A stretch of DNA of 64,000 nt, taken from an uncultured Aminicenantes bacterium (lineage in GTDB: Bacteria; Acidobacteriota; Aminicenantia; UBA2199). The position numbers and the translations under genes were made by a program. The notes beneath the pieces were generated by a model, which had not been told where the DNA came from, searched no databases, and saw only the letters and a program-made list of their open reading frames with translations. The stretch lies in assembly GCA_965195285.1 (NCBI GenBank), contig CBDAFS010000009.1, forward strand, positions 28,860 to 92,859. The letters run 5' to 3'. Each line of letters begins with the position of its first letter. Position 1 is the first letter of the stretch. Shown piece after piece: positions 8,494 through 56,654 of the stretch.

Positions 8494-8496
8494 TGG

Positions 8497-25814: not shown

Positions 25815-27338
25815 TTACTCCAGACTCCCAACCTCTTTCTCGACTTCCTCAAGAATTTCACATGAGTTGACCAGTTTCTTCATAACCGTGTGATCTGGAT
25901 AAAGTGGCCGGTCAATCTCCAGGAAATCCACATATTTGCGAATAATCTCTTTGGCTTTTACCACTCCCCGTCCAAAATTGTACTCTCTGAAATCCAGGGC
26001 CTGGGCGGCTGCCATAAATTCAATTCCCAGTATACCATAGGCGTTATCCAGTATTTGAAAATTCTTAATGGCGGTATTCATTCCCATGGAGACAAAATCC
26101 TCCTGATCCGCTGCTGCCGGAATGGATTGTATTGAGGCCGGCATTGAGAGTATCCGCTGTTCCACGATTTGCATGTCAGCTGTATACTGGCTTAACATCA
26201 ACCCGGAAAACATTCCTGCTCCCTTGGTTAAAAATGCTGGCAGGCCGACACTCAGGGCCGGGTTATTGAGTCGATTCATTCTTCGTTCGGATAATACACT
26301 GACCATGGTGATGGCTATGCCGGCCATATCCATGGGCAGGGATACCGGAGATCCCTGGAAGTTGGCCCCGGTCAATTGCAGGTTTTCTTCGGGGAAAAAG
26401 ATGGGATTGTCACCCACCCCGTTCAGTTCGATTTCAACCTGGGACCGGGCATAGTTCAGTGCATCATGGGCGGCTCCGATAACCTGAGGTGTAGAACGCA
26501 TGGAATAGGCATCCTGAACCTTGCATTTGATTTTTCCCTTAATCAGATCTCCACCCTGGATGCAGGCGTTGATGGCCCGGGCGCATCGAATGGCACCGGA
26601 GAATCCACGGACTTCATGAAGTTTGGGCGTATATGGCTTCATGTTTGCCTTCAATGCTTCCAGGGACATGGAGGTGGCAATTTCAGCCTGTTTAAGCCAT
26701 CGGTTGGCATCATACAGGAATATGGCGCTCATGGCAGTCAGTAAATTGGATCCGTTTATGGTGGCCAGGCCATCTCTGGCTTCCAATCCTGGGATGGGAA
26801 TCCCGGCCTTTTCCATGGCTTCTTTGCCTTCCAGCAGTGTTCCCTGGTAATAGGCCTCCCCCTCGCCGAGTAAAAGCAGTGCAATCTGGGACATGGGTGC
26901 CAGGTCACCGCAGGCACCAACCGAACCCTTCTGGCAAACATAGGGTGTTACCCCCTTGTTTAACATGTCCACTAGGGTTTGGGCAATCACCGGGCGACAG
27001 CCTGAGTTTCCTTTGGAGAGCACGTTGATCCGGCTGGCCATGGCCCCCCGCACGTATTCGATGGGTGCAGGGTCTCCAATACCGGCCGCATGGTTGTATA
27101 TCAGGTATTTTTGAAAATCCTTGATCTGGTCATCGTTGAGAACAACCTCTGAGAATTCTCCGATCCCCGTATTCACACCATACATGATTTCTCGAGCGAC
27201 TATTTTCTTTTCCAGCATAGTCCTGCATTTTTGTATCCTTTCAATGGCTTCCGGATGAAGCTCAACCTGTTGGTTATGACGGGCGATCTGAACCAGCTTT
27301 TCAATGGCCAGGCCTGAACCGTTGAGAATAATTGGCAT
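25815..27338 (-). CDS. Aromatic amino acid ammonia-lyase family protein with Ala-Cys-Gly at the MIO position
   Basis: YGVNTGIG, GSVGACGDL, QDAYSMR, DNP, ANFQG, QEDFVSMG. Confidence 0.88.
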   Translation of the reverse strand: MPIILNGSGLAIEKLVQIARHNQQVELHPEAIERIQKCRTMLEKKIVAREIMYGVNTGIGEFSEVVLNDDQIKDFQKYLIYNHAAGIGDPAPIEYVRGAMASRINVLSKGNSGCRPVIAQTLVDMLNKGVTPYVCQKGSVGACGDLAPMSQIALLLLGEGEAYYQGTLLEGKEAMEKAGIPIPGLEARDGLATINGSNLLTAMSAIFLYDANRWLKQAEIATSMSLEALKANMKPYTPKLHEVRGFSGAIRCARAINACIQGGDLIKGKIKCKVQDAYSMRSTPQVIGAAHDALNYARSQVEIELNGVGDNPIFFPEENLQLTGANFQGSPVSLPMDMAGIAITMVSVLSERRMNRLNNPALSVGLPAFLTKGAGMFSGLMLSQYTADMQIVEQRILSMPASIQSIPAAADQEDFVSMGMNTAIKNFQILDNAYGILGIEFMAAAQALDFREYNFGRGVVKAKEIIRKYVDFLEIDRPLYPDHTVMKKLVNSCEILEEVEKEVGSLE

Positions 27339-27970: not shown

Positions 27971-28240
27971 TTAGTGGTGTAGCTTTTGGAATTCATCTCT
28001 GCATTTCTTCGAGCAGAAGTAAACGGTTTCCTTTTCCCAGTTTAGTTTGATGGCCTGGCTTTCCGGGATATATGTTCCGCAAACCGGATCTTTTTTCATC
28101 TCTTCCATCGGTTTGGGGGATCCGGATTTTTTTTCTCTTTTAAGAAAACCGAAGAGGTCCCCTTTCCAAAATAGTCTGACCAGGAAGTACACAGCGGCTG
28201 CGATGATTAAAAATCTTAAGATTCGAATAATAAAAATCAT
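27971..28240 (-). CDS. Membrane-anchored YHS/TRASH domain protein
   Basis: DPVCGTYI...YFCSKKC. Confidence 0.8.
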   Translation of the reverse strand: MIFIIRILRFLIIAAAVYFLVRLFWKGDLFGFLKREKKSGSPKPMEEMKKDPVCGTYIPESQAIKLNWEKETVYFCSKKCRDEFQKLHH

Positions 28241-29751
28241 TGCAGGTCTTTCACGATATTTAACAGAGAATCATTGTTAATCATGTCAACAATTTCTTTG
28301 AAGTACAGATCGAGCCGGTGATCCTTTTCCAGAAATGGCACCTTCTGTCTGACTTTACTTTTTATCTTTTCAATGATTTTTGAACTTTTTAAAGTGTAGA
28401 AATCAAGCGCCTGCAATCCAACCATCAGTTCAATGGCTAATATATATTTGACGTTATGAATGATTTCCCGGGCAGTTCTGGCGCCAATGGTTCCCATACT
28501 GACATGGTCTTCCTGATTGGCAGAAGTGGGAATGTTGTCCACCGAGGAGGGGTGGGCCAGGGTGCGGTTTTCGGATGTGAGTGAGGTGGCGGTTATATGG
28601 GCAATCATGAATCCCGAATTCAGGCCATCATTTTGAATCAGAAACGGAGGCAATCCCATGTTGGTTGAGGGGTTGAGCAACCGATCGATTCGTCTTTCGG
28701 ACATGTTGCCTAGTTCGGTTATGACAATGGAAAGGAAATCCATGGCAAAAGCCACTGGTTCACCGTGAAAATTTCCACCGGATAAAATTAATTTTTTATC
28801 CGGGAAAATCAGGGGGTTTTCGGTTGCCGAATTGATTTCGACTTCCAGTATTTTCCGGACATGATTCAGGGTGTCTCTGATCGCTCCATGAACCTGAGGT
28901 ATGCAGCGGATTGAATAGGCATCCTGGATTTTTTTTTCACCCTGATGGGATATCCATAAAGGTGAATTTTTTATAAGTTTGAGTATGTTTCGACTGGTTG
29001 TCAATTGTCCCGGGTGGGGTCTGACCTGTTGAATTTCATCATAAAATGGTGAGGGATTTCCCAACTGGGCTTCGAAGGTCACGGCTCCGCCAATATCGGC
29101 GATTTTAACCAGTTTTTCAGCATCCAGTAAATTGAAAACCCCAATAGCGGTCATGACCTGGGTTCCGTTTATCAGGGCCAGGCCTTCCTTTTCTTTCAGG
29201 ATAACGGGCGATAACCCGGCTTGTTTCAGTGCGGTTCTGGCCCGGACCTTTTTTCCCCGGAAGCTGACGTATCCTTCTCCGATCAAAACTGAAGCCAAAT
29301 GGGACAGGGGAACCAGGTCACCGGATGCACCTACCGACCCTTTGGCGGGAATAAAGGGAACAAAATGATGATTGAGAAGGTCTAACAGGAGTTGAACCAG
29401 TTTCAGTCGAACCCCGCTGTTGCCCTTGGCCAGTACATTGGCTCGCAGCAATATGATTCCCCGAACGATTTCCTCCGGTAGAAAGTCACCCACACCGGCG
29501 GTATGACTCTTAATCAGGTTTTTCTGTAATCTCATCAGGTCTTTGTTATCGATTTTTTTAGTGGCCAGGGCCCCGAAACCGGTGTTGATACCATAGTAGG
29601 CCTTTTCAGACTTTATGAATTGTTCCAGGATTTTCCGGGAATGTTTGATTTTGGTGATGGCGGTTTCCGAGAGTTCAACTCTGGTTTTCATTTTGGCCAC
29701 CCTGAAAAATTCATCCAGGGTTAATTGGTCTCCATCAATTTTTATCAGCAT
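28237..29751 (-). CDS. hutH: Histidine ammonia-lyase
   Basis: YGINTGFG, SH specificity pair, GSVGASGDL (ASG MIO), QDAYSIRC, GGNFHG, NQEDHVSM. Confidence 0.92.
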   Translation of the reverse strand: MLIKIDGDQLTLDEFFRVAKMKTRVELSETAITKIKHSRKILEQFIKSEKAYYGINTGFGALATKKIDNKDLMRLQKNLIKSHTAGVGDFLPEEIVRGIILLRANVLAKGNSGVRLKLVQLLLDLLNHHFVPFIPAKGSVGASGDLVPLSHLASVLIGEGYVSFRGKKVRARTALKQAGLSPVILKEKEGLALINGTQVMTAIGVFNLLDAEKLVKIADIGGAVTFEAQLGNPSPFYDEIQQVRPHPGQLTTSRNILKLIKNSPLWISHQGEKKIQDAYSIRCIPQVHGAIRDTLNHVRKILEVEINSATENPLIFPDKKLILSGGNFHGEPVAFAMDFLSIVITELGNMSERRIDRLLNPSTNMGLPPFLIQNDGLNSGFMIAHITATSLTSENRTLAHPSSVDNIPTSANQEDHVSMGTIGARTAREIIHNVKYILAIELMVGLQALDFYTLKSSKIIEKIKSKVRQKVPFLEKDHRLDLYFKEIVDMINNDSLLNIVKDLQ

Positions 29752-31088: not shown

Positions 31089-32237
31089 TTACAGCTTCAT
31101 TGAACCGAGTATTTCCAGTGAAATGACATGCCTCTGTATTTCGTTGGTTCCCTCATATATTTGCAGGAGTTTGGCATCGCGCATCATTTTTTCAACCGGA
31201 TATTCCTTCATATATCCATATCCTCCGAAAATCTGAACGGCATCGATCGAGACCTTCATGGCTACATCGGTGGCCACAATTTTGGCCATAGCCGATTCTT
31301 TGGAAGCCTTAAGATTGTTGTCCAGCATCCAGGCCGAGCGATAGACCAGCAACCGGGCCGCATCGATATCGGTTGCCATATCAGCAAGTTTGAAAGCATT
31401 GTGCTGAAAATGGGCAATGGGCTTGCCGAATTGTACCCGTTCCTGGGAATATTTTAAGGCTTCTTCATAGGCAGCCCGGGCCACACCCACTCCGCCGGCT
31501 CCGACCGCAGGCCTGGCATAATCAAGTGTTTTCAGGGCAATGATAAAGCCGAAACCTTCCCTCCGGAGCAGATTTTTAACCGGTACTTTTACTTCATCAA
31601 GATAAATTTCAGCCGTGTTGGAAGCGCGATGGCCCATTTTATTTTCATGTTTTCCAACCGAAACTCCGGGAAGATCCATGGGAATGATAAAGGCAGAAAG
31701 CCCCCGGGCTCCCCGGGTCTTGTCGGTACTGGCAAAAACAACCCCCAGATTGGCCACTCCGGCATTGGTAATGAAGGTTTTAGAACCATTTAAAATATAA
31801 AAATTACCGTCTTTTACCGCTGTAGTCTTCATGGCAGCGTTATCCGAGCCTGCTTCCCGTTCGGTCAATCCGAAACAAGCAAATTTCATTTCCGTGGTTA
31901 GTGGAGTCAGAAATTCCTTTTTTTGCTCATCGGTTCCGAATAAAACAATCGGAGTGGTGGCCAGGGTGTTGGCCATGATTGAGGTATACATTCCGGCGCA
32001 TCCCCAGGCCAGTTCTTCACATACGATCGCATTATCCATATTGGAAAAGCCTGCCCCTCCATACTCCAGGGGAATTCCTGATTTCAGGAATCCGATTCCT
32101 GCCGCTTTTTTCATCACTTCAACCGGAAATTCGTTTTTCTCATCATATTCTGCAGCCACCGGCCTGATTTCGTTGGCTGCGAACTGATGGGTCAGTTCTT
32201 TTAGCTCCAACTGATCTTCACTTAGTTTAAAATCCAT
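31089..32237 (-). CDS. Acyl-CoA dehydrogenase
   Basis: FGLTEREAGSD, GSKTFITN, RVQFGKPI, FGGYGY, IYEGTNEIQ. Confidence 0.93.
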   Translation of the reverse strand: MDFKLSEDQLELKELTHQFAANEIRPVAAEYDEKNEFPVEVMKKAAGIGFLKSGIPLEYGGAGFSNMDNAIVCEELAWGCAGMYTSIMANTLATTPIVLFGTDEQKKEFLTPLTTEMKFACFGLTEREAGSDNAAMKTTAVKDGNFYILNGSKTFITNAGVANLGVVFASTDKTRGARGLSAFIIPMDLPGVSVGKHENKMGHRASNTAEIYLDEVKVPVKNLLRREGFGFIIALKTLDYARPAVGAGGVGVARAAYEEALKYSQERVQFGKPIAHFQHNAFKLADMATDIDAARLLVYRSAWMLDNNLKASKESAMAKIVATDVAMKVSIDAVQIFGGYGYMKEYPVEKMMRDAKLLQIYEGTNEIQRHVISLEILGSMKL

Positions 32238-32249
32238 TTCCTACTTCTC

Positions 32250-34607
32250 CTAGAGTTTAATTTGTTTTATTTGATTTAATATTTCTTGAGCACTTTGATA
32301 ACGGTCTTCACGCTTCTTTTCCATGCATTTTTCTATAATTTCAATCAGTTTTTCGGGAACGTCATTCCGGATCTCTTTCAGGGAGGGAATCGGATCAAAT
32401 AAATGCTGATAAAAAATATTTTCACCCTTAAAGGGAACCTTACCGGTGATGAGATGGAATAGGGTAGCTCCGGTTGAGTAGATATCGGTCCGGTGGTCAA
32501 TTTTTATTCCCTGAATCTGTTCTGGAGACATGTAGTAGGGGGTTCCGGTTATGATACCGGTTTCACCTTTTTTATAATCCCCCCGGATGACAGCCAATCC
32601 GAAATCCATGATTTTAATTTCCTTCTGACGGGTAATCATAATATTATGGGGTTTGATATCCCGGTGGGTGATGCCTTTGCGATGGGAGTAATCGAGTGCT
32701 TTCAATATTTTAATGGCAATAAATAGGATCTGGGGGATGGAGAACTCTTTTTTTCTTCTGATCAGGGCCATGAAATTTTCACCCTCGATGAATTCCATGG
32801 AAATAAAATGATCTCCGTTTACCTGGCCGACATCATAAACGGTAACAATATTGGTGTGGGACAAAGAGGCTGTAGATCGGGCCTCGGTGTAGAATCGCTC
32901 CAAGCTGACCTTATCCTTGATGAGACTGGAGTTCAGAATTTTTAAGGCTACAATCCTCTGTAAAACCGTGTCTTCGGCTTTAAAAACCACTCCCATCCCG
33001 CCTTCGCCAACCTTTTTCAGCATTTTGTATCGTTGACCTGAATTTTCAGAAACCATTTCCATCTCTTTGTATTTCTTCATCAATTTTTCCACTTCCTGCA
33101 GTTTCTGATGAATGTCTTTGAATGAATAGTCTTCGGTCAAGATGCCCTGAAAAATTTCAAACGCCTTCTTGAAATTGCCGACATTTTCATAGGCCTGTCC
33201 CAGGGCATAGTACCATTCCAGATTTGACTTGTTTATGGGTTGATTCTGAAGGAGATTGCCGATTTTTTCAATAACCAGCTGGGGTTTTCTGTTTTTTAGA
33301 AAAAGCGAGGCCATCTGGGTAACTGCGGTTTCATAATCGGAAGAATTGCTTTTTACTTTTTGAAAATTGGCCAAAGCCCTTCGGTCATCATCCACTTTCA
33401 GGAATGAGATACCGGCATTGTAAAAGTCATCTGCCTTTTCAAATAGTTCGCCGGCTTTCTGGTATTTCTTATATTTCAATGAAATTTCCGCAGCATTCTT
33501 CCATTCCCTTCCCAGTTCGAACATTTTGGCTGCTTCCTCTTCATTGCTGGCTTTCAGGTAATTATCAGCGGCAGACAGATAATTCTGGTTCATAAAGTAA
33601 CAGTAAGCTGCCTTTTCAAAATTAGTGTCCCACTCAAATAATTCTGCAGCCCGGGTGTAATCCTGACCCTTGAGATACCATTCCGCGGCTTGAAGGGTGT
33701 CCCCTCTGGCAAAGGCATCCTCACCTCTCAATTGATATGCGATTTTTGATTGGTCGATTTTTTCATAAATCTCAGCGGCCTTGATGGGAAGCTGGGCTTT
33801 TTCAAAAAACTGGGCAGCCTCCTCAAGTTTTCCGATTTTCAATGCCAGTTCTGCCGCTTTTTCGAATTTATTGTGCTTTTTTAACAGGGTATAAGCATGT
33901 TCGTTTTCATTGATCTTGATATAAAGTTCAACGGCTTTGAAGAGATCTTCTTCAAGTTGACTGGTATTCTGGTATCCTACTGCGGTATCGGCATTGGTTA
34001 AAAACCATTTTTCAAAATTTTGGGCGGCTTTTTTTAAGTTACCGGATTTTTCATAGACATATGCGGCTTTTTTATAAAACCCCTTTTTCTCATATATCTG
34101 GGCGGCTCTTTCGTAACGTTCATAGTTGTAATACAGTTCCGCTGCTTCCTGAAAACGGTTGTTGTTTTCCAGAAGATTTCCGGCGGCTTCTATATTTTTT
34201 CTTCTTATATATAATTTAATAATTCCGTCAATATTGCCGCTATTCTTGAAGACTTCAATGGCCTGGGTTTCTTTCTTGAGCTTCAGATACAGGTCGCCCA
34301 TCAGGTTGAATTCCTGGCCAGCCTCATAGGTTTTCAAGGCCCTTTTATAATCTCCGATTTCTTCGAATATTTTTCCGGCTCTGGCAAACATACCCCGTTT
34401 TAGGGCCTTTTTGGCCTGTTTGATCAGGTAAGATTTCTTGAACAGTATTGAATAAACGGTATCCACAAAAGATTTGTCCTGGATATTCAATACCTTGGAG
34501 ACCTTTAAAATCTCATAAACAATTTTCAATACGATGACGATGATTAGGGAAATGGCGAATAATTTGATAGTGGGATTATCGTTCAGAAAATCGATAATTA
34601 TATCCAT
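32250..34607 (-). CDS. Membrane-anchored TPR-repeat Hanks-type Ser/Thr protein kinase
   Basis: N-terminal TM, long AA..Y/F helical repeats, then GEGGMG, VALK, HRDIKPHN, DFG, GTPYYMSPEQ. Confidence 0.9.
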   Translation of the reverse strand: MDIIIDFLNDNPTIKLFAISLIIVIVLKIVYEILKVSKVLNIQDKSFVDTVYSILFKKSYLIKQAKKALKRGMFARAGKIFEEIGDYKRALKTYEAGQEFNLMGDLYLKLKKETQAIEVFKNSGNIDGIIKLYIRRKNIEAAGNLLENNNRFQEAAELYYNYERYERAAQIYEKKGFYKKAAYVYEKSGNLKKAAQNFEKWFLTNADTAVGYQNTSQLEEDLFKAVELYIKINENEHAYTLLKKHNKFEKAAELALKIGKLEEAAQFFEKAQLPIKAAEIYEKIDQSKIAYQLRGEDAFARGDTLQAAEWYLKGQDYTRAAELFEWDTNFEKAAYCYFMNQNYLSAADNYLKASNEEEAAKMFELGREWKNAAEISLKYKKYQKAGELFEKADDFYNAGISFLKVDDDRRALANFQKVKSNSSDYETAVTQMASLFLKNRKPQLVIEKIGNLLQNQPINKSNLEWYYALGQAYENVGNFKKAFEIFQGILTEDYSFKDIHQKLQEVEKLMKKYKEMEMVSENSGQRYKMLKKVGEGGMGVVFKAEDTVLQRIVALKILNSSLIKDKVSLERFYTEARSTASLSHTNIVTVYDVGQVNGDHFISMEFIEGENFMALIRRKKEFSIPQILFIAIKILKALDYSHRKGITHRDIKPHNIMITRQKEIKIMDFGLAVIRGDYKKGETGIITGTPYYMSPEQIQGIKIDHRTDIYSTGATLFHLITGKVPFKGENIFYQHLFDPIPSLKEIRNDVPEKLIEIIEKCMEKKREDRYQSAQEILNQIKQIKL

Positions 34608-34622
34608 TGAAGTTCTTTGGAA

Positions 34623-34651
34623 AGTATATCAAATATAAGGGAAAAAATCAA
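34623..34651 (-). promoter_or_regulatory. Putative sigma70 promoter for the kinase
   Basis: TTGATT-17-TATACT with TGn extension on the minus strand. Confidence 0.5.
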
Positions 34652-34671
34652 TTTTACATTTTTTCGTTTGA

Positions 34672-34700
34672 TTGACAATAATTGGTTTAGTCTATATAAT
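34672..34700 (+). promoter_or_regulatory. Consensus sigma70 promoter for the clp-lpxC pair
   Basis: Exact TTGACA-17 bp-TATAAT. Confidence 0.75.
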
Positions 34701-34825
34701 GTCTCCAGTCAGTATGGCATAAATGAAATTTAAATAATCTGATAATTTTACTGAAATGTTTGCTACTGTTGATGAAATGATATCGAACATTTTTTATTAA
34801 GATCGAATTTCCTGAACTGGTAGAA

Positions 34826-37765
34826 ATGAATATACAATTTGAGAGTTTGACCAAAATCAAATCCATCCTGAATCTGGTATTTCCCAAATCGGATTTCAAT
34901 AAATTCAACCTGAACAAGTCCAATTCCCAAGACCTGGTTTCCTACCTGATCTTTTTGACCGATGCCCTGCTTAAATCGGAAAATTTATATCACAAGAGAA
35001 ATCTCATGCAGGTGAATGGGGATTCCATTATTCAGCAGAGCTTGATACCGGTCATGAATCATATCGGTATCCATTTGAATCAATTCAATACCCGGATATT
35101 TGACTTTTCCAAAACAGAACGTCAGACCTTTATCTTTATCATTGATAACCTGATCGATTACCATAAGAATCTTGAATTCTTTTCCGATAAAAAAGGAAAA
35201 AAGGATATCTATTCTGAATATAAATTCTGGATTGAAAATTTTTTTAAAATTTTTGATCAGAAAATCAATGGTTCATTTGAACGAAAAAAACGTTCTGGAG
35301 AGTCAGGGGGATATGAATTATTTTTTACCAATGCAGAGATCAGATTGCCCCTTTCTCCCTTCATTATAGGTGAACAGAAAACCTGGTTTTTACTCCAGGG
35401 TATCACCGAAGAAAGACTGCTGTACCGGGATATTCAGCAGGACAAATCAATTGTTGTCGAAAATGAATTGCTGGATACCAAGCTGGTAGAATTTTTCATC
35501 TCCAATCTTGATTTTAAAAATTTGAAATCAATCAGTGGTCGTAGCGCTGACCAGCAAAACATTTATTTGGTGCATGCCGATGTGATTGAAAACATTGTGA
35601 ATTCTTACCGGAAAAAACTATATGGGGTTTGTTTGAATCTGTTTAAAGAACTTGAAATTGATAAATTGAACCTTCCCCTGTTGTATGTCATCAAGATAAA
35701 AAGTTTGCTTAAACTTGACCGTATCTTTGATACCAAGCGTTTATTGCAGAAGTTTATTCTCTTGTATCCCTACTATTCAACAGGTTATAAAATTCTGGGG
35801 GATGTTTATCTGAAAGAAGAGAATCATGAACTGGCCCATAATTCATATGTCAAGGCATTAAACATCACCCAAAACAAGAAACTGACAGAAAAATTAAAAG
35901 CCATCAAGGAAGAGATCGAAAAAGGTAAACGAAAAACCGAATCTTCCCGGGGTGATATGTTTTATGATATAACCGAAATGATACTGGAACATAAAGAAGT
36001 CATCATCTCCCGGGAAAGAGAATTCCGCCAGATGGTAGAAGTACTCATCTCTCAGTCCCGGTCAAATCTGATTTTAATTGGCGATAGTGGGGTGGGGAAA
36101 ACCGCCTTGATTCGATTTCTGGCTCAAAAGATATTGGATGGAAAAGTTCCCTCGGCCCTGAGAGAGAAAAAAATAAAGGAGATCAATTTTGTGGCCCTAC
36201 TAACCGGTTCAAAGTACAGAGGGCAATTTGAAGAAAAGGCCTTGAAAATCCTGAATGACTTCAAATTTCAAAATGCCATCCTGATTTTGGAAGATATTCA
36301 TTTAATGATGTCATCCGGTACCACCCGTGGCACATCGCTCGACCTGGTCAATATCTTAAAACAGTTTTTAAGAGAACAATCCATTCAGGTTATCGCTACA
36401 ACCAGCTATGATGAGTATAAGAATACGGTGGAGAAGGACAATTCCCTGCTGGGGTTTTTCCAGAAGCTCACTGTTAACGAACTTTCCACCGATGATACCC
36501 GGGTCATTCTGGGAAATTTGGCCAAAGCGGTCTTGGAAAGAGAGAACATATGTGTCCCAGAAGACATTATCACGGATATAGTTGAAAGTGCCAAGCGAAA
36601 CATCAAGGAAAAAAAATTGCCTGACGGGGCCATCATGATTTTGGATAGGGCGGTATCCAAACTGAAATTGAAAAACAGCCTGGAAACCGTGCAGAGATCA
36701 GAACTGATCCAGGCTGATATCCTGGAAGTGCTTTCCGACATCCTGAATCTTCCGGAAACCAATATTTCCGTCACCTTAAAAAGCAGGCTGGCTGGCTTGA
36801 AGCAATATATGGAATCAAATATTGTGGGACAGACCAGAGCCATTGACCGGATCGTCTCTTCGGTTTTAACCTCCAAATTGAATTTGGATATTAAAAACAG
36901 CCGGCCTGACGGGGTCTTTCTTTTTATTGGGCCCACCGGTGTGGGAAAAACAGAAATGGCTATTGCCCTGGCCAAAGCCCTTTATGGTTCCGAAGATTAC
37001 CTGATCCGGATCGATATGTCCGAATATATGGAAAAATTTACCTATTCCCGATTTATCGGGGCCGCGCCGGGGTATGTGGGCTATTACGATACCAATCAGC
37101 TAACCGATAAAATTCGTCAAAATCCGTTCTCCGTTATACTGCTTGATGAATTTGAAAAAGCCGATATCCAGTTATTGAATATCTTTTTGCAGGTTTTTGA
37201 TGCCGGGCGATTAACCGATGCCCGGGGAAATGTGGTGGACTTTTCCCACTCGACCATCATTATGACCTCCAACATCGGGACCTCTTTGTTTTCGAAAACC
37301 CAGATGGGATATCAAAGTGATCTGGATGGGAACCGCGTGTCCCGGGGTGCGCTGGTAAAATCCCTGAAACGCTTTTTTTCACCTGAATTTTTAAACCGGA
37401 TTGATGAGATAGTGGTTTTTAATCATCTTGAAGCGGAAGATATTAAAAAAATCATCGAGATCCAGCTGGGTGAAGTGAAGCATAATATTGAAAAACAGGG
37501 CAAAGAGCTGGTTATTCAGGAAGAGGTTTTTGATTTTATTATCCAGAAATATTATTCAAAGGAATATGGGGCCAGAAATATTTCCCGGGCATTGAAGACT
37601 GAAATACTGGAAAAAATTGCCGACTATTCCCTGACCTCAGAATGGAATGAGACCGGTGTCATTATATGTGCTATGAACAACCAGCAAGTTGACATACAGC
37701 TGGAAGTAGCCGGTACTGCTTCAATAGGAAAGGAAGTGCTCCTTGAAAAGTTCGATGGAAAGTGA
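34826..37765 (+). CDS. ClpA/ClpC-like two-module AAA+ ATPase with atypical N-terminal region containing TPR-like helices
   Basis: GDSGVGKT, GSKYRGQFEE; GPTGVGKTE, RIDMSEY, GAAPGYVGY, LLDEFEKA, PEFLNRID, YGARN. Confidence 0.87.
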   Translation: MNIQFESLTKIKSILNLVFPKSDFNKFNLNKSNSQDLVSYLIFLTDALLKSENLYHKRNLMQVNGDSIIQQSLIPVMNHIGIHLNQFNTRIFDFSKTERQTFIFIIDNLIDYHKNLEFFSDKKGKKDIYSEYKFWIENFFKIFDQKINGSFERKKRSGESGGYELFFTNAEIRLPLSPFIIGEQKTWFLLQGITEERLLYRDIQQDKSIVVENELLDTKLVEFFISNLDFKNLKSISGRSADQQNIYLVHADVIENIVNSYRKKLYGVCLNLFKELEIDKLNLPLLYVIKIKSLLKLDRIFDTKRLLQKFILLYPYYSTGYKILGDVYLKEENHELAHNSYVKALNITQNKKLTEKLKAIKEEIEKGKRKTESSRGDMFYDITEMILEHKEVIISREREFRQMVEVLISQSRSNLILIGDSGVGKTALIRFLAQKILDGKVPSALREKKIKEINFVALLTGSKYRGQFEEKALKILNDFKFQNAILILEDIHLMMSSGTTRGTSLDLVNILKQFLREQSIQVIATTSYDEYKNTVEKDNSLLGFFQKLTVNELSTDDTRVILGNLAKAVLERENICVPEDIITDIVESAKRNIKEKKLPDGAIMILDRAVSKLKLKNSLETVQRSELIQADILEVLSDILNLPETNISVTLKSRLAGLKQYMESNIVGQTRAIDRIVSSVLTSKLNLDIKNSRPDGVFLFIGPTGVGKTEMAIALAKALYGSEDYLIRIDMSEYMEKFTYSRFIGAAPGYVGYYDTNQLTDKIRQNPFSVILLDEFEKADIQLLNIFLQVFDAGRLTDARGNVVDFSHSTIIMTSNIGTSLFSKTQMGYQSDLDGNRVSRGALVKSLKRFFSPEFLNRIDEIVVFNHLEAEDIKKIIEIQLGEVKHNIEKQGKELVIQEEVFDFIIQKYYSKEYGARNISRALKTEILEKIADYSLTSEWNETGVIICAMNNQQVDIQLEVAGTASIGKEVLLEKFDGK

Positions 37766-39104
37766 AAAAAAAATGCAGAAAGTACTCATAATCGATGATG
37801 AAAAGAATATTCAGGCATCTCTGGCTTCGGTTATTGAAGATGAAGGTTTCAAGGTTTTTTTCTCAACCTCTGGTGAAGAGGGAGTGGAAAAATTTAAAAA
37901 CATTAGACCCGATGTCACTTTCGTGGACATATGGCTTCCGGGAATTGATGGCCTGGAAACCATGAGGAGAATTCTGGAGGTTGATCCGGTTCAGATTATC
38001 ATTATGATCTCGGGTCATGGCAGTATCACCACAGCAGTAAGAGCACTCAAAGAGGGAGCCTATGACTTTATGGAAAAACCTTTGAGTATTGATAAAGTGA
38101 TATTCGCCTTACAACGGGGCCTTGAGTATAAGAAAATTTTAGAGGAAAATCGGATGTTGAAGTCCATGTTATCGGATAATCGCGAAAACGATCCCAGTAT
38201 TCAGAAGATTGTGAAGAGAGAAAGTACCGGTAGAATTGAATTTGAAATCGGAGACGTCGAATATTCCAGGAAACAAAAAACCATTCGCAAGGATAATATT
38301 TTTTACGGAATCGGGTTGCACTCCGGACAAAAAACCGGTATGTCCCTAAAGCCTCTGCCTGACGGGAAGGGTATCCGTTTTGAGAACATCACCGAAGTGG
38401 GATATGTCCCTGCCCGGATAGAATATATTGATACTACCAATTATGCCACTTCGGTGCGAAAAGATATTCTTGAGGCCAAAACAATTGAACACTTTATGGC
38501 TGCCCTGCATGCATTCGGTATTACCAATATTTCAATCAAAATCAATAAAGAAGTTCCCACCGGGGATGGATCGGCCAGTGTCTTTTGTGATCTGATACGG
38601 AAAAGCGGTGTGGTGGAGCAGAATGAATTCATAACTGACATAATTATTGATAGGCCCTTGGTTATCGGGAATGAAAAAGGTGGTGGTAAATTCATTCGGG
38701 TAGATCCTGCAGACATTTTTACGGTGAATTATACAGCTGAATTCCCGGAACCGATGGGAAAAATGAGTTATGAGTTTGTCATGCATTCCCCTGAGGATTT
38801 TGAAAGGGAAATTGCCCCGGCCAGGACCTTCGGGTTTGTTGAAGAGATCAATAAGATGTCTCAGATGGGACTGGCGGAGGGCGGACGAATCAATAATTTC
38901 ATATTAATTGATAAAGGCCGGGTCTTGAATACCGAATTACGTTTCAAGGATGAACTGGTCAGGCATAAGATCCTGGATGTTATCGGAGATTTTTATCTTC
39001 TGGGCAGGTCCATCCGGGGGAAAATAACCGCCTTCAAGACAGGCCATTCTGATAACATCCAGATGGTGAATTTAATCAAAGAAAAATTTTTAACTCAGCA
39101 ATAA
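37755..39104 (+). CDS. lpxC: Receiver (REC) domain fused to UDP-3-O-acyl-GlcNAc deacetylase
   Basis: IIDDE, VDIWLP, SGH, EKP; then KQKT, GIGLHSG, TIEHFMAAL, EVP.GDGS, ARTFGF, RHKILD, GH. Confidence 0.9.
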   Translation: MESEKKMQKVLIIDDEKNIQASLASVIEDEGFKVFFSTSGEEGVEKFKNIRPDVTFVDIWLPGIDGLETMRRILEVDPVQIIIMISGHGSITTAVRALKEGAYDFMEKPLSIDKVIFALQRGLEYKKILEENRMLKSMLSDNRENDPSIQKIVKRESTGRIEFEIGDVEYSRKQKTIRKDNIFYGIGLHSGQKTGMSLKPLPDGKGIRFENITEVGYVPARIEYIDTTNYATSVRKDILEAKTIEHFMAALHAFGITNISIKINKEVPTGDGSASVFCDLIRKSGVVEQNEFITDIIIDRPLVIGNEKGGGKFIRVDPADIFTVNYTAEFPEPMGKMSYEFVMHSPEDFEREIAPARTFGFVEEINKMSQMGLAEGGRINNFILIDKGRVLNTELRFKDELVRHKILDVIGDFYLLGRSIRGKITAFKTGHSDNIQMVNLIKEKFLTQQ

Positions 39105-39133
39105 TTTATTCATTCAATCCTTAGAGAAGGGCT

Positions 39134-39436
39134 TTAGGTATCCAAGGCTACAATATCTGAAAAAATTTTGGATAATTTTTCAAAATCATGGAATTTATCG
39201 GTGCTGAAATGAATCCCCTTTTTGGTGGGTTTCCAGGCCCCGGATTGATCCTGAAACCAGGTTCTGATATCGATATATTTTCTGCCTCTGAAATTTGAGA
39301 TTGAAAAAATCAGTTTCTGAGTTGCTGTCAGTTCGATATGACCGAGGTTAACCAGGTCTTCGGTGTCATTGACAAAGTCCGGTTTTTCCAGTTGTAAGTC
39401 GGTTTCAATTTTTTTCTTTAATTCGGAAAATTCCAT
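39134..39436 (-). CDS. PC4/YdbC-family single-stranded DNA-binding protein
   Basis: FRGRKYIDIRTWF...WKPTKKGI. Confidence 0.8.
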   Translation of the reverse strand: MEFSELKKKIETDLQLEKPDFVNDTEDLVNLGHIELTATQKLIFSISNFRGRKYIDIRTWFQDQSGAWKPTKKGIHFSTDKFHDFEKLSKIFSDIVALDT

Positions 39437-39475
39437 ATTTACTCCTTTTATAGGCCGCTGTTTTAGGCGGTAAAT

Positions 39476-39727
39476 TTATTTTTGTCGATCCAGGGATTTT
39501 TTAAATATATCTTCTGCTTTTTTTTTTTTCTCCTTCTCCAATTCTTTGGCCAGGACAAATCGTTCATCGGCTTTCTCTTTTTTTTCCTTTTCCTTTTTCA
39601 ATAACGAATCAAAGGACTCAAAATTTTTTTTTTTGGTTTTTTCATGTTGAATTACGGTTTTCTTTTCGGAATCTACCCAGAGGTTGGAATGGCAATGCGG
39701 GCATTCAATTTCAATTAGTTTTGACAT
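39476..39727 (-). CDS. Small CxxC protein with Lys/Glu-rich coiled coil
   Basis: IECPHCHSNLWVD then a charged helix; promoter-like sequence directly upstream. Confidence 0.65.
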   Translation of the reverse strand: MSKLIEIECPHCHSNLWVDSEKKTVIQHEKTKKKNFESFDSLLKKEKEKKEKADERFVLAKELEKEKKKKAEDIFKKSLDRQK

Positions 39728-39832: not shown

Positions 39833-42694
39833 TTAGAAATCCAGGCCTATCCAGAAAGTAAACCCATAATACTCTTTCTGGGTAAAATCCCAGCGATAAA
39901 TCCATTCAAAATGCATGGGAATACCGAACAAAAACGCTTGAATACCGAAACCATAAGAGGAAATTCCGTACAGAAGCTTGAATTTCCCCTCCTCCAGGAA
40001 CCGGTAATCAGGATCGTCAGTGAACCAGGCTCCACCCACATCGAAAAACAATACACCGCGCACAGGGCCCACATTCCCGATCAGGGTTCTGGCCGAGGTG
40101 ATCAGGGGGAATCTGAACTCGGCATTGAAGAAAAATCCATTGTTGCCCACCATGGATCTCCAGGGGACCGAGCGGATGGTATTGTTGCCTCCGGTCCAAT
40201 ACAAGATGGCATTATCCCCACCGGAGGTAAAACCTTTAAACCGGAAGGCCAGGAGGGTATGGATGTTTAGATTGACATATTTCCGAATATCCGCATCTGC
40301 TGAATAGGCGTCCATGAATGAATCACCCAGCTTGAAATATTTTTTAACTGAAAGTTTAAAGGTGTGTCCCCGGTTGGGGCCGTAATAGGAAAAACGGGTG
40401 GTCTCTCCGACCAGGGATAATTCAGCCGCAGTTGCATAGCCGCTGAAAAATTGACCGTAGGGAAGGTCATATCCCAGCAACAGTTCTGAATTTTCTTCCT
40501 GCTTGTACAGTGACAGACCCAGTTCGGCCCGGTAGGAGCGACTGAAGGGATACCATAGGGAAAAATCTCCACCGTATATTTTACGAAGGGTGAGATAAGA
40601 CTGGCTGTAGGGTTGATCCAGAGCATAGTCATAATAGGGATAATAATAGGGTTCGCGGTAATAATACATGTGGGCAAAATACTGCCACCGGTGGGTCAGG
40701 TTGAGATAATATATGTGGGACGATGTATACCCGTAATAGGAGGCCAAATAGAAAATAATATTTTGATCGCCCATCAGGTCGGTTATTTTCAGGGCAGCGG
40801 AACCCAGAAAGCTTCCATCACTTGAATAACCGATGGTAACTGATGGCATGGCGGTCAAGAAAAGTTTACTGAAAGGTTTGTATTTTTTCTCTTTGCTGAT
40901 TTTTACTTCCGGTTCTTGGGTTTTGGCAATCTCAATTTTTTTGATTTCATCGAATTCGATCTCTCTGACCTCCAGATGTTCGGAGATATCCTTTTTAAAT
41001 AGCAGGAAATTGTTTTTATAGTAGGTTGATATCACCAACCGTTCTGGATCTTCCGGTATTTCAAAGGGGAAGAAATTACCGGTGCGAACATCGGTATACC
41101 GGTAAAGCACTTTCTGTTCCAGATCAATTGAATTGATATTGTAGGATTCCAGTTCATCCGAACTGTAATATATATGCTTGGAATCCCGAGAAAATACCGG
41201 GGTGATATCATTGTAATACCCGGTGGTCAATTGAATGGCCATTTCCGGTTTTTCAAGTGTTCCCAGGAATAGTTTATAAAACTGATCCCTTTTGGCTGAA
41301 AAAACGATTTTTTCCCCATCCGGGGAAATATTCAATGATTTGATAAACAACAACCCTTCGGTGAGTTTATTGATTTGATTGGTGTTCAGGTTAATGGTGA
41401 AAATATAGGATTTTGAATTTTCAATACCGGTAAAGTATAAATGGTTGTTGTCAAGTGAGAAATCGGGGGAAGTCGGATCCTGGATGTTTTCGATTTTAAT
41501 TTTTTTCAGAATTTTACCATCCAGAATATCCAGCAAGACCAGATAATAACTTAATTCGTGCCGGGCAAAAAAGGCGATTTTTTCACCCTGATTGTCCCAG
41601 GAAAAGGATATACCATCGGCCGGATTGAATTTGAGATTGATGTTGTCATATTTGCTGGTCATACCCGGGGTGATATTCTTTATGGTGTGGCCATCCCGGA
41701 GGGAAATGAGAAGGATATCAAGATCAGCGTTTTTCCGGTTCGCAGTCAAAACTGCCAGCATTTCACCGGTGGGTGAAACCTGGTGGGAGAAGGAGTAAAC
41801 AAAGGGAAATTCGGGTCCAAGCATAATACCGTATTCTTCGGGATTTTCCTTTGTGAAAAATTTTTCAAACCGGTTCCGGGCATATTTTTTGAATTCGAAA
41901 TTGAATATTTTAACGGAGGGAAAAAACAGTTTGGAAACATTTCGTTTACTTTTAAGTACCGAGGCTTTCCGGTAATAGTAAAACAAGTTTTTGACGGCCC
42001 GGTCTCCGAACTTTTCGTGGATGAAATCGATGGCCAGATGACCGAAATCATAGGCGGCCCGGTTGGTGCCGTAGGTGGATCGCAATTGCCCGCTTTTGGT
42101 GAGTATGGGGATCTGGTCATTGAGCACGGCATCCCGGACGGTCAATAAATTAAAATTATCCCAGCCCTGGGTGATAAAATCGGCAAAACCTTCCATTACC
42201 CAAAGGGGGGGGCTTCTGAAGGACATGTTGCTTCGGGAGATGTCCTGGTAGAGAACCGAAAACTCGAATATATGGCCCAGTTCATGGGTCAGGGTGCCCA
42301 AGATCTCATCTATGGACAGGTCACCGTGAATAACAACCCGGTGGCCGATGGGCTCGGCAAAGGCCTGGGCTGCGGGGGGAAGAAATCCCGGGTATAGATT
42401 GGTCTGTTCGAATTCAATGTGAGTTTTATAGAAGATGATGGGGATTTTCTTCTTGACTTCGATATTCATGAATTTTGACATTCGGTTATAGTCTTGCTCG
42501 GCAGAATTGACAATTTGCTTGATCAGGGCAATATTGGCTGTATAATAGTAAATTTTGAAATGCTCTGTTTCCAGGAATTTCCAATCGAATTTAGACTGCC
42601 GAACCTTGTTTTTGCCATAATAATAATATTGTGAAAAAGCGTTATTCACTGTGAAAAGTAATACCAAAAGTAGAATGATTGTTTTTATTTTCAT
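39833..42694 (-). CDS. Omp85/BamA-TamA-like barrel protein with N-terminal zinc-peptidase (HExxH) and TolB/PD40-like propeller
   Basis: Signal peptide, HELGH and WVMEG, SPTG/SPDG/FSRD repeats, AEFRFP, FFDVG, terminal IGLDF. Confidence 0.78.
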   Translation of the reverse strand: MKIKTIILLLVLLFTVNNAFSQYYYYGKNKVRQSKFDWKFLETEHFKIYYYTANIALIKQIVNSAEQDYNRMSKFMNIEVKKKIPIIFYKTHIEFEQTNLYPGFLPPAAQAFAEPIGHRVVIHGDLSIDEILGTLTHELGHIFEFSVLYQDISRSNMSFRSPPLWVMEGFADFITQGWDNFNLLTVRDAVLNDQIPILTKSGQLRSTYGTNRAAYDFGHLAIDFIHEKFGDRAVKNLFYYYRKASVLKSKRNVSKLFFPSVKIFNFEFKKYARNRFEKFFTKENPEEYGIMLGPEFPFVYSFSHQVSPTGEMLAVLTANRKNADLDILLISLRDGHTIKNITPGMTSKYDNINLKFNPADGISFSWDNQGEKIAFFARHELSYYLVLLDILDGKILKKIKIENIQDPTSPDFSLDNNHLYFTGIENSKSYIFTINLNTNQINKLTEGLLFIKSLNISPDGEKIVFSAKRDQFYKLFLGTLEKPEMAIQLTTGYYNDITPVFSRDSKHIYYSSDELESYNINSIDLEQKVLYRYTDVRTGNFFPFEIPEDPERLVISTYYKNNFLLFKKDISEHLEVREIEFDEIKKIEIAKTQEPEVKISKEKKYKPFSKLFLTAMPSVTIGYSSDGSFLGSAALKITDLMGDQNIIFYLASYYGYTSSHIYYLNLTHRWQYFAHMYYYREPYYYPYYDYALDQPYSQSYLTLRKIYGGDFSLWYPFSRSYRAELGLSLYKQEENSELLLGYDLPYGQFFSGYATAAELSLVGETTRFSYYGPNRGHTFKLSVKKYFKLGDSFMDAYSADADIRKYVNLNIHTLLAFRFKGFTSGGDNAILYWTGGNNTIRSVPWRSMVGNNGFFFNAEFRFPLITSARTLIGNVGPVRGVLFFDVGGAWFTDDPDYRFLEEGKFKLLYGISSYGFGIQAFLFGIPMHFEWIYRWDFTQKEYYGFTFWIGLDF

Positions 42695-44370: not shown

Positions 44371-44724
44371 ATGAAACATTTTTATATTCGCTCTAAAGTT
44401 GAAGAGCAGATTGCAGTTATTTATCCTAAAGGACATCTGGATGCTCATAATGTGGAACGGTTTGAAAAAGAAATTGTAAAATTATTGAGTAATAACATTG
44501 TCCGGATTGTGGTGAACTGCAAGGATTTAAATTATATCAGCTCCGCTGGAATGGGAATCATAATGGGATATCTGGATGAGATCCGGGATAAGAATGGAGA
44601 TATCCGGCTCTGTTCGGTCAATAGCCGGGTATATGAAATATTTGACCTGGTGGGTTTTACCGATATTTATGATTTTGTTAAAGATGAAGCCAGTGCCATC
44701 AACAAATTTAAAAATGTTTCCTGA
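44371..44724 (+). CDS. STAS-domain anti-sigma-factor antagonist (RsbV/SpoIIAA-like)
   Basis: GHLDA, YISSAGMG, VYEIFDLVGF. Confidence 0.88.
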   Translation: MKHFYIRSKVEEQIAVIYPKGHLDAHNVERFEKEIVKLLSNNIVRIVVNCKDLNYISSAGMGIIMGYLDEIRDKNGDIRLCSVNSRVYEIFDLVGFTDIYDFVKDEASAINKFKNVS

Positions 44725-45142
44725 AAAACCTGAATTATCCATCACAATTCCCAGCAAGACCGAATTGTTGAAAATGGTTGTTGAATTGACCAAGCATATC
44801 GCAACCATCAATCAATTCCCCAGTTCCGATTCCCAGAAGATTGCCCTGGCAGTCGATGAAGCCATTACCAATGTCATCAAGCATTCTTATCTCAGGAAAA
44901 AGGATAAGGATATCAGGCTTGAATACTTCACCAATGGGAATGGATTGAAGATAAAAATCATTTTTACTGGTATTCCTCCGGTTCTGTCCAAGGAAGGTGT
45001 TGACTTAAACAAGTATATCAGGGAAAAAAGAAAGAGCGGACTGGGGGTTGAATTAATGAGAAGAATAATGGATTCGGTTGAATATAAAACGGTCAATGAT
45101 GTGAACTATTGTGAAATGATAAAATGGAAGACCAAAAAATAG
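44714..45142 (+). CDS. RsbW/SpoIIAB-like anti-sigma factor/kinase (HATPase)
   Basis: IALAVDEAITNVIKHSY, GLGVELMRRIMD; ATG 44714. Confidence 0.82.
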   Translation: MFPEKPELSITIPSKTELLKMVVELTKHIATINQFPSSDSQKIALAVDEAITNVIKHSYLRKKDKDIRLEYFTNGNGLKIKIIFTGIPPVLSKEGVDLNKYIREKRKSGLGVELMRRIMDSVEYKTVNDVNYCEMIKWKTKK

Positions 45143-55869: not shown

Positions 55870-56654
55870 GGGAAGGGATCAATCTCGCCCGAGAAAAAAA
55901 CCACTTTTTCACCGGTTGTTTTTTCCAACACGATTCCCCCTTCCGGATTGATTTCCAGGAAGCGTGCTTTAATGGGCTTCCGATTCTGATGGAATGTTAT
56001 TTTCTCCCCCCGTTCATAACAGTTCATCCGTATGGCCGTATTGATGATGGTTGACTTTTCTTCTCTTTCCAGAACATCCAGCCATTTAAAGAATAACCGG
56101 ATCAGGTGAGGTTCTACCGTTTGGATCTCCAGGGGCTGCCCGGTTATCATCCGGGCTGAAATTGCACTTCTTCTCAAATCATCTGGAAAATCAGACCGGA
56201 GGTGATTGATATTGATTCCCATGCCGCAGATACTGATTATCCTGTCTTTTTTGATGATGTTTTCAATTAAAATCCCGGCAATTTTTTTACCTTGATAGAG
56301 GACATCATTGGGCCACTTCAGATTAAATTCCCGACCGGTGATGCGGTTCAGGGTTTCAGATAGGGTAATTCCGGCTATCAGGGAAAGCATGTTCAGATGT
56401 TGCGGCTTGTTGAAAAAAAATCCCAGTGAAATATACAGGCCTTGGTCTCGGGCTGAAAACCATTCTCGATTATCCCGTCCACGTCCCCTTACCTGGGTCC
56501 TGGATGAAATACCCACCGGGAATTGATCGGTCATTTTGGTTAGGTTCCGGCGTAAGTAATTGTTGGTTGAGTCGCAGGAGTCCAGCCTGATAAAGGTTAG
56601 GATATGCCTACCCGTATCAATCTTTTTCTTCTCAACTGATTTTTTGGGATTCAT
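55857..56654 (-). CDS. birA: Biotin--[acetyl-CoA carboxylase] ligase (no HTH)
   Basis: DSTN, QVRGRGR, KWPND, KIAGILIE. Confidence 0.9.
   Translation of the reverse strand: MNPKKSVEKKKIDTGRHILTFIRLDSCDSTNNYLRRNLTKMTDQFPVGISSRTQVRGRGRDNREWFSARDQGLYISLGFFFNKPQHLNMLSLIAGITLSETLNRITGREFNLKWPNDVLYQGKKIAGILIENIIKKDRIISICGMGININHLRSDFPDDLRRSAISARMITGQPLEIQTVEPHLIRLFFKWLDVLEREEKSTIINTAIRMNCYERGEKITFHQNRKPIKARFLEINPEGGIVLEKTTGEKVVFFSGEIDPFPQSS

Follow-up and report, generated by a model that had tools for sequence, protein, structure and literature searches.

Introduction

How is LpxC, the first committed enzyme of lipid A synthesis, controlled outside the Proteobacteria? Its regulation is understood in only a few members of that group, through FtsH/LapB/YejM, through MurA, possibly through Lon, and through NtrYX acting on transcription. 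The question is raised anew by a locus in a 64,000-nucleotide (nt) stretch of contig CBDAFS010000009.1 (assembly GCA_965195285.1), called the window here, whose source is Candidatus Aminicenantes; the nearest protein and locus names are those of Aminicenantes or Acidobacteriota metagenome-assembled genomes. Three genes stand together in it: a Ser/Thr kinase with a transmembrane (TM) segment and tetratricopeptide repeats (TPR) on the minus strand, and, on the plus strand, a two-ring Clp/Hsp100 ATPase followed by a fusion of a receiver (REC) domain to LpxC (Table 1). An original prediction, made from the sequence, read the three as one circuit for lipid A control. The three atypical architectures that it listed are all recovered from the list of open reading frames (ORFs) and from Pfam and NCBIfam scans of the window proteins, which are the basis of the domain calls. 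As an interpretation it holds up in part: architectures, linkage, operon, promoters and a Clp loop speak for it, and Clp losses, a tie between the kinase and an acyl-CoA dehydrogenase, and a His-Asp input speak against it. The firmest result of the analysis is the REC-LpxC fusion itself, and the core of the locus would be a lipid A deacetylase under the direct input of a two-component system.

Relatives of the locus were gathered by a REC-LpxC-seeded search of genome contigs, which returned 40 loci (L001-L040). Eighteen are Aminicenantes-type full fusions (L001-L017 and L026), including L001 at 98% identity. Syntrophobacterales / Thermodesulfobacteriota supply eight shorter-branch fusions, which are 43-46% identical (L018-L025); three loci are long forms (L027-L029), one is a C-terminal REC-LpxC fragment (L030) and ten are receiver-only matches (L031-L040).

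A receiver domain fused to LpxC

The fusion protein consists of an NtrC/NtrX-type receiver, a linker of about 55 amino acids (aa) and a complete LpxC deacetylase domain. The receiver matches Pfam Response_reg (PF00072) at residues 14-121 (E 2.5e-26, 92.5 bits against a cut-off of 30.2), and the deacetylase half matches Pfam LpxC at residues 178-445 (E 2.2e-78) over profile positions 1-266 of 268. The protein also passes the curated NCBIfam cut-off for the TIGR00325 lpxC equivalog, with 231.9 against 187.25 bits. In an alignment of 61 REC-LpxC sequences, four of them from Syntrophobacterales-type loci, the receiver residues D8, D9, D52, S80 and K102 and the LpxC residues E239, H240, H398, K399, D402 and H425 are invariant (numbered from ATG 37773). 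By position, we take D8 and D9 to be the acidic pair of the receiver, D52 its phospho-acceptor Asp, and S80 and K102 its conserved Ser/Thr and Lys. The LpxC half aligns to the LpxC structure 2jt2 (E 2.3e-52), where all six of the invariant LpxC residues are identical; this Glu-His pair, His-Lys-x-x-Asp motif and distal His are presumably the zinc-binding and catalytic residues. Both domains are present in all 120 relatives listed, out of 7980 matches.

The Clp and REC-LpxC genes had been described as overlapping. An overlap needs a start at TTG 37743 or ATG 37755, but the start kept in orthologues, with the motif M-x-K-[IV]-L-[IV]-[IV]-D-D-E, is ATG 37773, which lies 7 nt past the Clp stop codon (37763-37765). 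The two genes are tightly coupled, not overlapping. In the accessible text of the publications returned by a literature search, neither a REC-LpxC fusion or LpxC-output response regulator nor control of LpxC by a Ser/Thr kinase was found.

The Syntrophobacterales-type relatives have surroundings of their own. The complete chromosome CP070774.1 carries two REC-LpxC copies (L018 and L025). A coiled-coil-like ORF of 229-240 aa with only SMC-like low-complexity matches lies directly upstream of REC-LpxC in those of the L018-L025 loci that were scanned (e.g. L018:9209-9898). About 2.5 kb upstream of the fusion in L018, the locus scanned for it, is an undecaprenyl-diphosphate synthase (6723-7505), and an ORF of the same size, 260 aa, is present in the other listed loci.

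Probable descent from an NtrX-type regulator

Where did the receiver come from? Its best family match is NtrX, and its best structural matches are NtrC-family proteins and NtrX. The NtrX model covers residues 11-146 only of the window protein (116 bits, below the cut-off of 600), which is without the sigma-54 AAA+ and DNA-binding parts and does not have the full NtrX/NtrC architecture. The long relatives L027-L029 (720-769 aa) are REC-sigma54 AAA-LpxC fusions in which the AAA+ part is retained, and in L029 the NtrX model extends over residues 4-441 at 360 bits. Histidine kinases with NtrY_N, HAMP, PAS and HisKA domains lie directly upstream in two of these three long forms (L028, 5091-7307; L029, 1529-3766). 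Judged by their domains, the long relatives are in effect NtrX with LpxC at the C-terminus. A methylmalonyl-CoA mutase gene lies downstream of the long fusion in both L028 and L029.

Published work ties regulators of this kind to lpxC. In the available text, a 2025 review describes repression of lpxC transcription by NtrYX in R. sphaeroides and C. crescentus (PMC12444477), and a study in D. vulgaris gives lpxC as the sole target of the response regulator DVU2934 (PMC3333781). Because the long relatives are NtrX-LpxC proteins encoded behind NtrY-like kinases, and because NtrYX control is already on record, the fusion family appears to hard-wire a known regulatory relationship. The presence of a receiver speaks for His-Asp control, exerted by an NtrY-type histidine kinase, an input that was absent from the original prediction. 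It is likely that the receiver controls LpxC and that REC-LpxC is a two-component-controlled LpxC.

Promoters, operon and synteny

The next question is what the two neighbouring genes have to do with this enzyme. The shared divergent promoter region that had been proposed between the kinase and Clp genes is confirmed, and its promoter pair is kept in all 12 kinase-linked loci. The plus-strand promoter, TTGACA-17-TATAAT at 34672-34700, agrees with the consensus at 12 of 12 positions; the minus-strand promoter, TTGATT-17-TATACT at 34651-34623, agrees at 9 of 12 and has a TG extension. Across these 12 loci the TTGAC-A, TATA-T and AAAAATCAAT / TATA blocks do not vary, in the presence and absence of Clp alike. 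Eleven loci, all of them kinase-linked, have a single copy each of the exact pattern AATTGACA-N17-TATAAT, and the exact plus-strand pattern has 3 sites in the 64-kb window against 0.01 expected. No RNA element was found by an Rfam scan of 32000-39600, which gave two sub-threshold chance matches. Since the promoter is kept whether Clp is there or not, Clp is a gene inserted or deleted between this fixed promoter and REC-LpxC, and co-transcribed with the latter.

Besides the window, 9 of 17 informative loci have Clp directly upstream of REC-LpxC, and in all 10 cases its stop falls -8 to +37 nt from the REC-LpxC start. The Clp-REC-LpxC pair is an operon. Of the 18 Aminicenantes loci, L002 and L009 do not reach far enough upstream to inform on the kinase, and in 12 of the other 16 it is divergent to REC-LpxC. 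Both genes are found at REC-LpxC in eight loci (L001, L003, L007, L008, L012, L016, L017 and L026), and L005, L010, L011 and L014 have kinase and REC-LpxC as immediate neighbours, no Clp gene standing between the two. This linkage is kept across Aminicenantes at 62-78% REC-LpxC identity, with a variable flank downstream.

A maximum-likelihood tree of REC-LpxC was built from 25 rows, with L012, L014 and L030 excluded as truncated and L027-L029 as having a different architecture. Clp-bearing loci fall in all three Aminicenantes clades of this tree, and L011, which is without Clp, sits inside a Clp-bearing clade with 100/100 support; on these two grounds the three-gene layout is probably ancestral in Aminicenantes. 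Upstream of REC-LpxC in L004, in the place of Clp and kinase, lies a 1127-aa LRR-Roc-COR (Roco) GTPase (6582-9965), preceded by an AAA_15 ATPase (4412-5884). L006, the sister of L004 in the tree, is likewise without Clp and kinase.

The Clp/Hsp100 ATPase

In Pfam, the Clp ATPase has AAA (D1, ~395-630), AAA_lid_9, AAA_2 (D2, ~693-862) and ClpB_D2-small domains. With two AAA+ modules and a D2-small domain it belongs to class I Clp/Hsp100, and it scores below every curated Clp equivalog cut-off (ClpA 498 of 993, ClpB 477 of 1232 and ClpV 429 of 885 bits). Its PDB sequence matches include S. aureus ClpC (E 6.8e-116) and ClpA, and because the ClpA alignment is contiguous over 392-954 the protein appears to be without an M-domain. 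The D2 motifs are canonical and the pore-loop sequences KYRGQFE and GYVGY are present. D1 has a normal Walker A, and a Walker B (residues 486-492) that reads L-E-D-(I/M/V/L)-H as against the usual hhhhDE; the family has LED in 32 of 33 members and LEN in one. ATP may be bound by D1 but hydrolysed atypically.

Could this ATPase feed ClpP? All 33 family members carry a loop tripeptide [MLV]GY that aligns with the AGF of S. aureus ClpC, which we take to be its ClpP-docking motif; ClpB has a shorter, gapped stretch there. The tripeptide has Tyr in place of the Phe or Leu of the hydrophobic-Gly-Phe/Leu docking tripeptide, and is suggestive of ClpP docking rather than proof of it. The Clp ORF of L007 (7171-10008) is without about the first 72 residues.

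The N-terminal part is peculiar to the lineage. No Clp_N domain was found among 25 of the 34 families listed for the whole protein, and scanning the N-domain by itself, at E up to 1, gave none either. An AlphaFold2 model of the N-domain built with 8 sequences (pLDDT 85.7, pTM 0.86), whose topology recurs in the full-length model, opens with a bundle of helices and continues through a beta domain (150-211) into a helical part that ends in three TPRs. Against three-repeat TPR structures the model aligns over ~107-124 columns with target-normalised TM-scores of 0.73-0.83. The earlier description of the ATPase as TPR-bearing is thus upheld by the fold of the model, but the sequence signal, a single TPR_2 match at 321-349, is sub-threshold (E 0.05). 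The repeats are placed at the C-terminal end of the N-domain because this match and the TPR-type profile matches (~214-380) fall there. Against the PDB, Foldseek returned nothing for the N-domain at E up to 0.001; its only matches were to TPR structures and cover one part of the domain, with none assigned to the first ~250 aa. An ESM Atlas search returned only generic TPR clusters, which at 0.82-0.83 are below the level of a lead. Word-indexed searching with the N-domain returned 33 clusters, all of 911-1003 aa. An exhaustive profile search returned 2642 matches at E up to 0.001, and among 150 of these listed, the part that precedes the TPRs is matched by only 21, of which 7 are full-length proteins (981-1006 aa) and the other 14, being shorter, probably fragments. 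From the 33 clusters and the 21 of 150 listed matches, the N-terminal module (the first ~250 aa) appears to be restricted to this Clp family.

Does the family live at this locus? Compared by eye, 14 of the 33 Clp clusters have a longest contig equal in size to that of a kinase cluster (11) or of a REC-LpxC cluster (4), and these equal-size contigs include some of only 6.8-10.8 kb; this is weak evidence that it does. A predicted complex of the Clp N-domain (1-385) with REC-LpxC scored 0.00 in two runs without controls, a result that counts neither way. The ATPase is a reasonable candidate for a dedicated REC-LpxC unfoldase.

The membrane kinase

The kinase domain matches Pkinase (PF00069) at 527-778 (E 1.3e-55, 189.1 bits against a cut-off of 31.7). 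The translation shows the motifs GEGGMGVV, VALK, HRDIKPHN, DFG and SPE, and in 40 orthologues their conservation is 95% or higher. The sole hydrophobic segment found, at ~14-34, has a Kyte-Doolittle mean of 2.63 over 19 residues and is kept in every orthologue shown of the 40 aligned. Between it and the kinase domain, about 430 residues (~70-505) match TPR, clathrin/VPS and IFT-type TPR models, the TPR-type matches falling at ~100-500, and the same region of the orthologues also matches the SNAP model. Searching with the N-terminal region gave 256 relatives, of which the top 120 are 63-92% identical and mostly 781-811 aa long. Acidic residues precede the TM segment and basic ones come after it; from this, and because a kinase needs ATP, the short N-terminus would lie outside the cell and the TPRs and kinase domain in the cytoplasm. 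In L008 the kinase (4534-6890) is covered by three overlapping tblastn segments, with frameshifts or assembly errors possible.

Is this protein a LapB? LapB has a TM anchor at its N-terminus, TPRs in the cytoplasm and a rubredoxin-like domain at its C-terminus. The window protein has the TM segment and TPR-like repeats, but its C-terminus is a kinase, which places it outside LapB. NCBIfam and a PDB sequence search gave no LapB match for its TPR region.

Comparison with known systems

The precedent invoked for the locus was the control of LpxC by LapB and FtsH in enterobacteria, and it agrees with the available text of PMC12444477. There, and in the accessible part of PMC13477621, the abundance of LpxC in Enterobacteria is set by LapB (YciM)/FtsH/YejM, that is, by an AAA+ machine and an inner-membrane TM-TPR protein. 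The likeness here is one of gene arrangement: LpxC shares its operon with an AAA+ unfoldase, and a divergent gene encodes a TM-TPR protein. The parts differ: in place of FtsH there is a soluble two-ring Clp/Hsp100, the TM-TPR protein has a Hanks kinase at its end where LapB has a rubredoxin-like domain and is without a LapB sequence match, and LpxC, unlike the enterobacterial enzyme, carries an N-terminal receiver.

Closer to the receiver are NtrYX and DVU2934, in which an NtrC/NtrX-type two-component element is likewise tied to LpxC. Those systems act on transcription, whereas control here would be post-translational and in cis, with an NtrX-like receiver fused to the enzyme. Compared with NtrX, the AAA+ and DNA-binding parts are gone from the window protein, and no linked histidine kinase gene is seen in Aminicenantes. 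CheB and RssB offer a parallel for a receiver fused to, or controlling, an effector that does not bind DNA, and models of both match the receiver; for RssB the resemblance is at the receiver level only.

The ATPase resembles ClpA/ClpC-ClpP, unfoldase-protease systems whose substrates are chosen by adaptors or the N-domain, in its two AAA+ rings, canonical D2, pore loops, D2-small domain and hydrophobic-Gly-aromatic loop aligned with AGF. It departs from ClpA and ClpC in having neither Clp_N nor M-domain but a 370-aa N-domain, one part of which lacks structural matches and the rest of which carries the three TPRs, in its LED Walker B in D1, and in its scores below the Clp equivalog cut-offs; no ClpP is seen in the window. 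LpxC activity can also be regulated without proteolysis: in Pseudomonas aeruginosa MurA activates LpxC, according to the available text of PMC12444477. That mechanism is activation by protein-protein contact, whereas here the MurA/EPSP-family gene lies 15 kb off and unlinked.

A model for the locus

The explanation we lean towards, tentatively and as a little short of an even call when taken whole, is a receiver-controlled LpxC with an accessory Clp and a possible contribution from the kinase; every functional interaction among the three proteins in it is inferred. REC-LpxC would go back to a fusion of LpxC with a response regulator of the NtrX type. The invariant Asp of the receiver would most likely be phosphorylated by an unlinked histidine kinase of NtrY-like type, and this phosphorylation would most likely switch the oligomeric state or the activity of the LpxC domain and so set lipid A flux. 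In the ancestral Aminicenantes layout, a near-consensus promoter would drive REC-LpxC together with a lineage-specific ClpA/ClpC-like unfoldase. The N-domain of this Clp would bind REC-LpxC and then pass it to ClpP or remodel it, forming an accessory layer of abundance control with a logic comparable to that of FtsH/LapB. That Clp acts on REC-LpxC in this way, as an accessory and dispensable unfoldase and probably with ClpP, is quite possible, and we hold it tentatively. The link of the kinase to LpxC is the weakest step of the proposal: the protein might scaffold or phosphorylate Clp or REC-LpxC at the membrane, or simply belong to an acyl-CoA dehydrogenase operon of its own. Its action in the same circuit is doubtful.

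Several observations weigh against joining the three genes into one system. Neither kinase nor Clp is near REC-LpxC in L004, L006, L013 and L015, nor in any of the 8 Syntrophobacterales-type loci (8/8), so that the synteny proposed as a check of the original prediction is found for the kinase (12/16) and Clp (9/17) but fails in these groups. On the tree, linkage to both genes was probably lost in L004/L006, L013 and L015. Clp is absent from 8 of the 17 informative loci, and its distribution indicates at least two independent losses, in L011 and in L005/L010, which together would make its role dispensable. The Walker B of its D1 ring is LED instead of the usual DE. Within the 64-kb window there is no clpP, no histidine kinase and, besides REC-LpxC, no lipid A gene. 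All loci were gathered through REC-LpxC, and the location of Clp and kinase elsewhere is judged solely from the by-eye comparison of longest contigs. Finally, an acyl-CoA dehydrogenase gene adjoins the 3' end of the kinase gene on the same strand in 11 of the 11 loci with sequence beyond it, and the conserved position of the kinase may come from its membership of a separate operon and from synteny inherited within one class.

Alternative explanations

Could the three genes be neighbours by descent only? REC-LpxC alone would then regulate lipid A, the kinase would serve an acyl-CoA dehydrogenase/FAD oxidoreductase operon in amino-acid or fatty-acyl catabolism, and Clp would have another substrate or a role in general proteostasis, making use of a strong promoter. 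We consider this a possibility of some weight, if on balance an improbable one. The window has 12 nt between kinase and acyl-CoA dehydrogenase, six loci checked have ~12-40 nt, and a DAO-type oxidoreductase comes next in 6 of the 11 loci. The dehydrogenase is probably co-transcribed with the kinase, and since it follows at every one of the 11 loci the kinase looks like the first gene of its own operon. The HutH-DAO-dehydrogenase-kinase block is thus itself conserved, every piece of linkage evidence is from one class, Clp has been lost repeatedly with both genes unlinked in four loci, and near-consensus promoters suggest constitutive expression. The flank on the other side tells a different story. 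Downstream of REC-LpxC, only 5 of 18 loci have a PC4 gene and other loci have insertions of transporter, asparaginase or ACPS genes, yet the kinase-(Clp)-REC-LpxC order persists at the same evolutionary distances; because this flank is far less stable than that order, we count pure inherited synteny as less favoured. Clp also stays within 37 nt of REC-LpxC in all 10 cases seen, and its N-domain is a lineage-specific invention that accompanies a lineage-typical form of LpxC.

The circuit of the original prediction has the TPR-kinase sense the state of the envelope or its lipids and phosphorylate REC-LpxC or Clp on Ser/Thr, upon which Clp with ClpP would degrade LpxC, the LapB-FtsH logic reinvented. 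One conserved divergent promoter block in the eight kinase-plus-Clp loci and the window is consistent with it, as are the LapB-like topology of the kinase (an N-terminal TM segment, then a cytoplasmic TPR solenoid), its intact catalytic motifs and the Clp loop that lines up with AGF of ClpC. For Clp substrates marked by phosphorylation, McsB with ClpC is a precedent. But the kinase stays beside REC-LpxC without Clp in L005, L010, L011 and L014, which makes the two separable, and it sits in an apparent operon with the acyl-CoA dehydrogenase at 11 of 11 loci. A family scan and structure search detected no phospho-binding module such as FHA in the Clp N-domain, the REC domain already supplies a phosphorylation input of another kind, and REC-LpxC does without either partner nearby in the Syntrophobacterales-type loci. 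All in all this circuit is unlikely.

A related proposal is a LapB/FtsH-like checkpoint built independently and from unrelated parts, in which a membrane-tethered TPR (SNAP-like) scaffold-kinase recruits or phosphorylates REC-LpxC at the inner membrane and the two-ring Clp with its unique N-domain, dedicated to this task, extracts it for degradation by ClpP. We regard it as quite unlikely. If true, a His-Asp signal, a Ser/Thr signal and regulated proteolysis would be integrated on a single polypeptide for lipid A flux.

An anti-phage defence module of kinase and Clp-like ATPase, placed beside lpxC by chance, is very improbable and was rejected: PADLOC PD-T4-6 and mad6 (MADS MAD6) match the kinase domain and DolB (Dodola) and PDC-M37B the AAA+ region, but these are domain-level matches to generic kinase and AAA+ domains, NCBIfam MAD6 reaches 162.6 bits against a curated cut-off of 460, vertical inheritance has kept the genes at one fixed place on the chromosome, with housekeeping genes around them, throughout the class, and the kinase is unusually uniform in length and sequence (781-811 aa for most of the top 120, at 63-92% identity), in contrast to what defence islands show.

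Other features of the window

The coordinates of the main features are collected in Table 1.

Table 1. Location of the genes, regulatory region and domains discussed, in window positions except where a locus of a relative is named
Feature	Position	Strand	Remarks
TM-TPR-Hanks kinase gene	32250-34607	-	785 aa
Two-ring Clp/Hsp100 ATPase gene	34826-37765	+	979 aa
Lineage-specific N-domain of Clp	34826-35941 (residues 1 to ~372)	+	replaces Clp_N
REC-LpxC fusion gene	37773-39104	+	443 aa from conserved ATG 37773; 453 aa from TTG 37743
Intergenic region between kinase and Clp genes	34608-34825		218 bp
Divergent sigma-70-type promoter pair	34623-34700	both	inside the 218-bp intergenic region
Acyl-CoA dehydrogenase gene	31089-32237	-	Pfam Acyl-CoA_dh_N, _M, _1; 12 nt downstream of kinase
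Long REC-sigma54 AAA+-LpxC fusions	L027:8684-10846; L028:7222-9531; L029:3813-6017		

Two aromatic amino-acid/histidine ammonia-lyase paralogues (25815-27338 and 28237-29751) lie on the same strand upstream of the DAO-dehydrogenase-kinase block, and the second of them scores above the HutH cut-offs. On the other side, downstream of REC-LpxC and on the opposite strand, is a 100-aa protein of the PC4 family (transcriptional coactivator p15-like; 39134-39436), whose gene recurs in L001, L002, L005, L010, L013 and L030. It is followed by a 953-aa PD40/TolB-like beta-propeller protein with a weak HExxH (flagellinolysin-like) match (39833-42694), kept in L001, L002 and L030.

Further along, positions 44371-46380 encode a partner-switching module made up of a STAS (RsbV-like) protein, a HATPase_c_2 (RsbW-like) protein and a SpoIIE-type phosphatase. 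The EPSP_synthase-family gene mentioned above (53724-55010) is a MurA or AroA, with nothing linking it to lpxC. A 442-aa ORF at 56632-57960 has Anticodon_1, found in tRNA ligases, as its sole Pfam match, with no catalytic domain detected, and may be a split or truncated synthetase. Near the start of the window, a 313-aa ORF with a Y1_Tnp (IS200-like transposase) domain (3053-3994) is longer than typical IS200 transposases.

Significance

What would such a locus mean for the control of lipid A? A Clp that is co-transcribed with LpxC and carries a domain found nowhere else is a testable candidate for Clp-dependent LpxC turnover outside the Proteobacteria. As a "Rosetta stone" fusion, REC-LpxC lends independent support to the NtrYX-LpxC link reported in Alphaproteobacteria. 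The locus points to a control of outer-membrane synthesis of an unstudied kind. A receiver-LpxC fusion that is widespread in Aminicenantes and present in Thermodesulfobacteriota would mean direct two-component control of lipid A synthesis at its first committed step.

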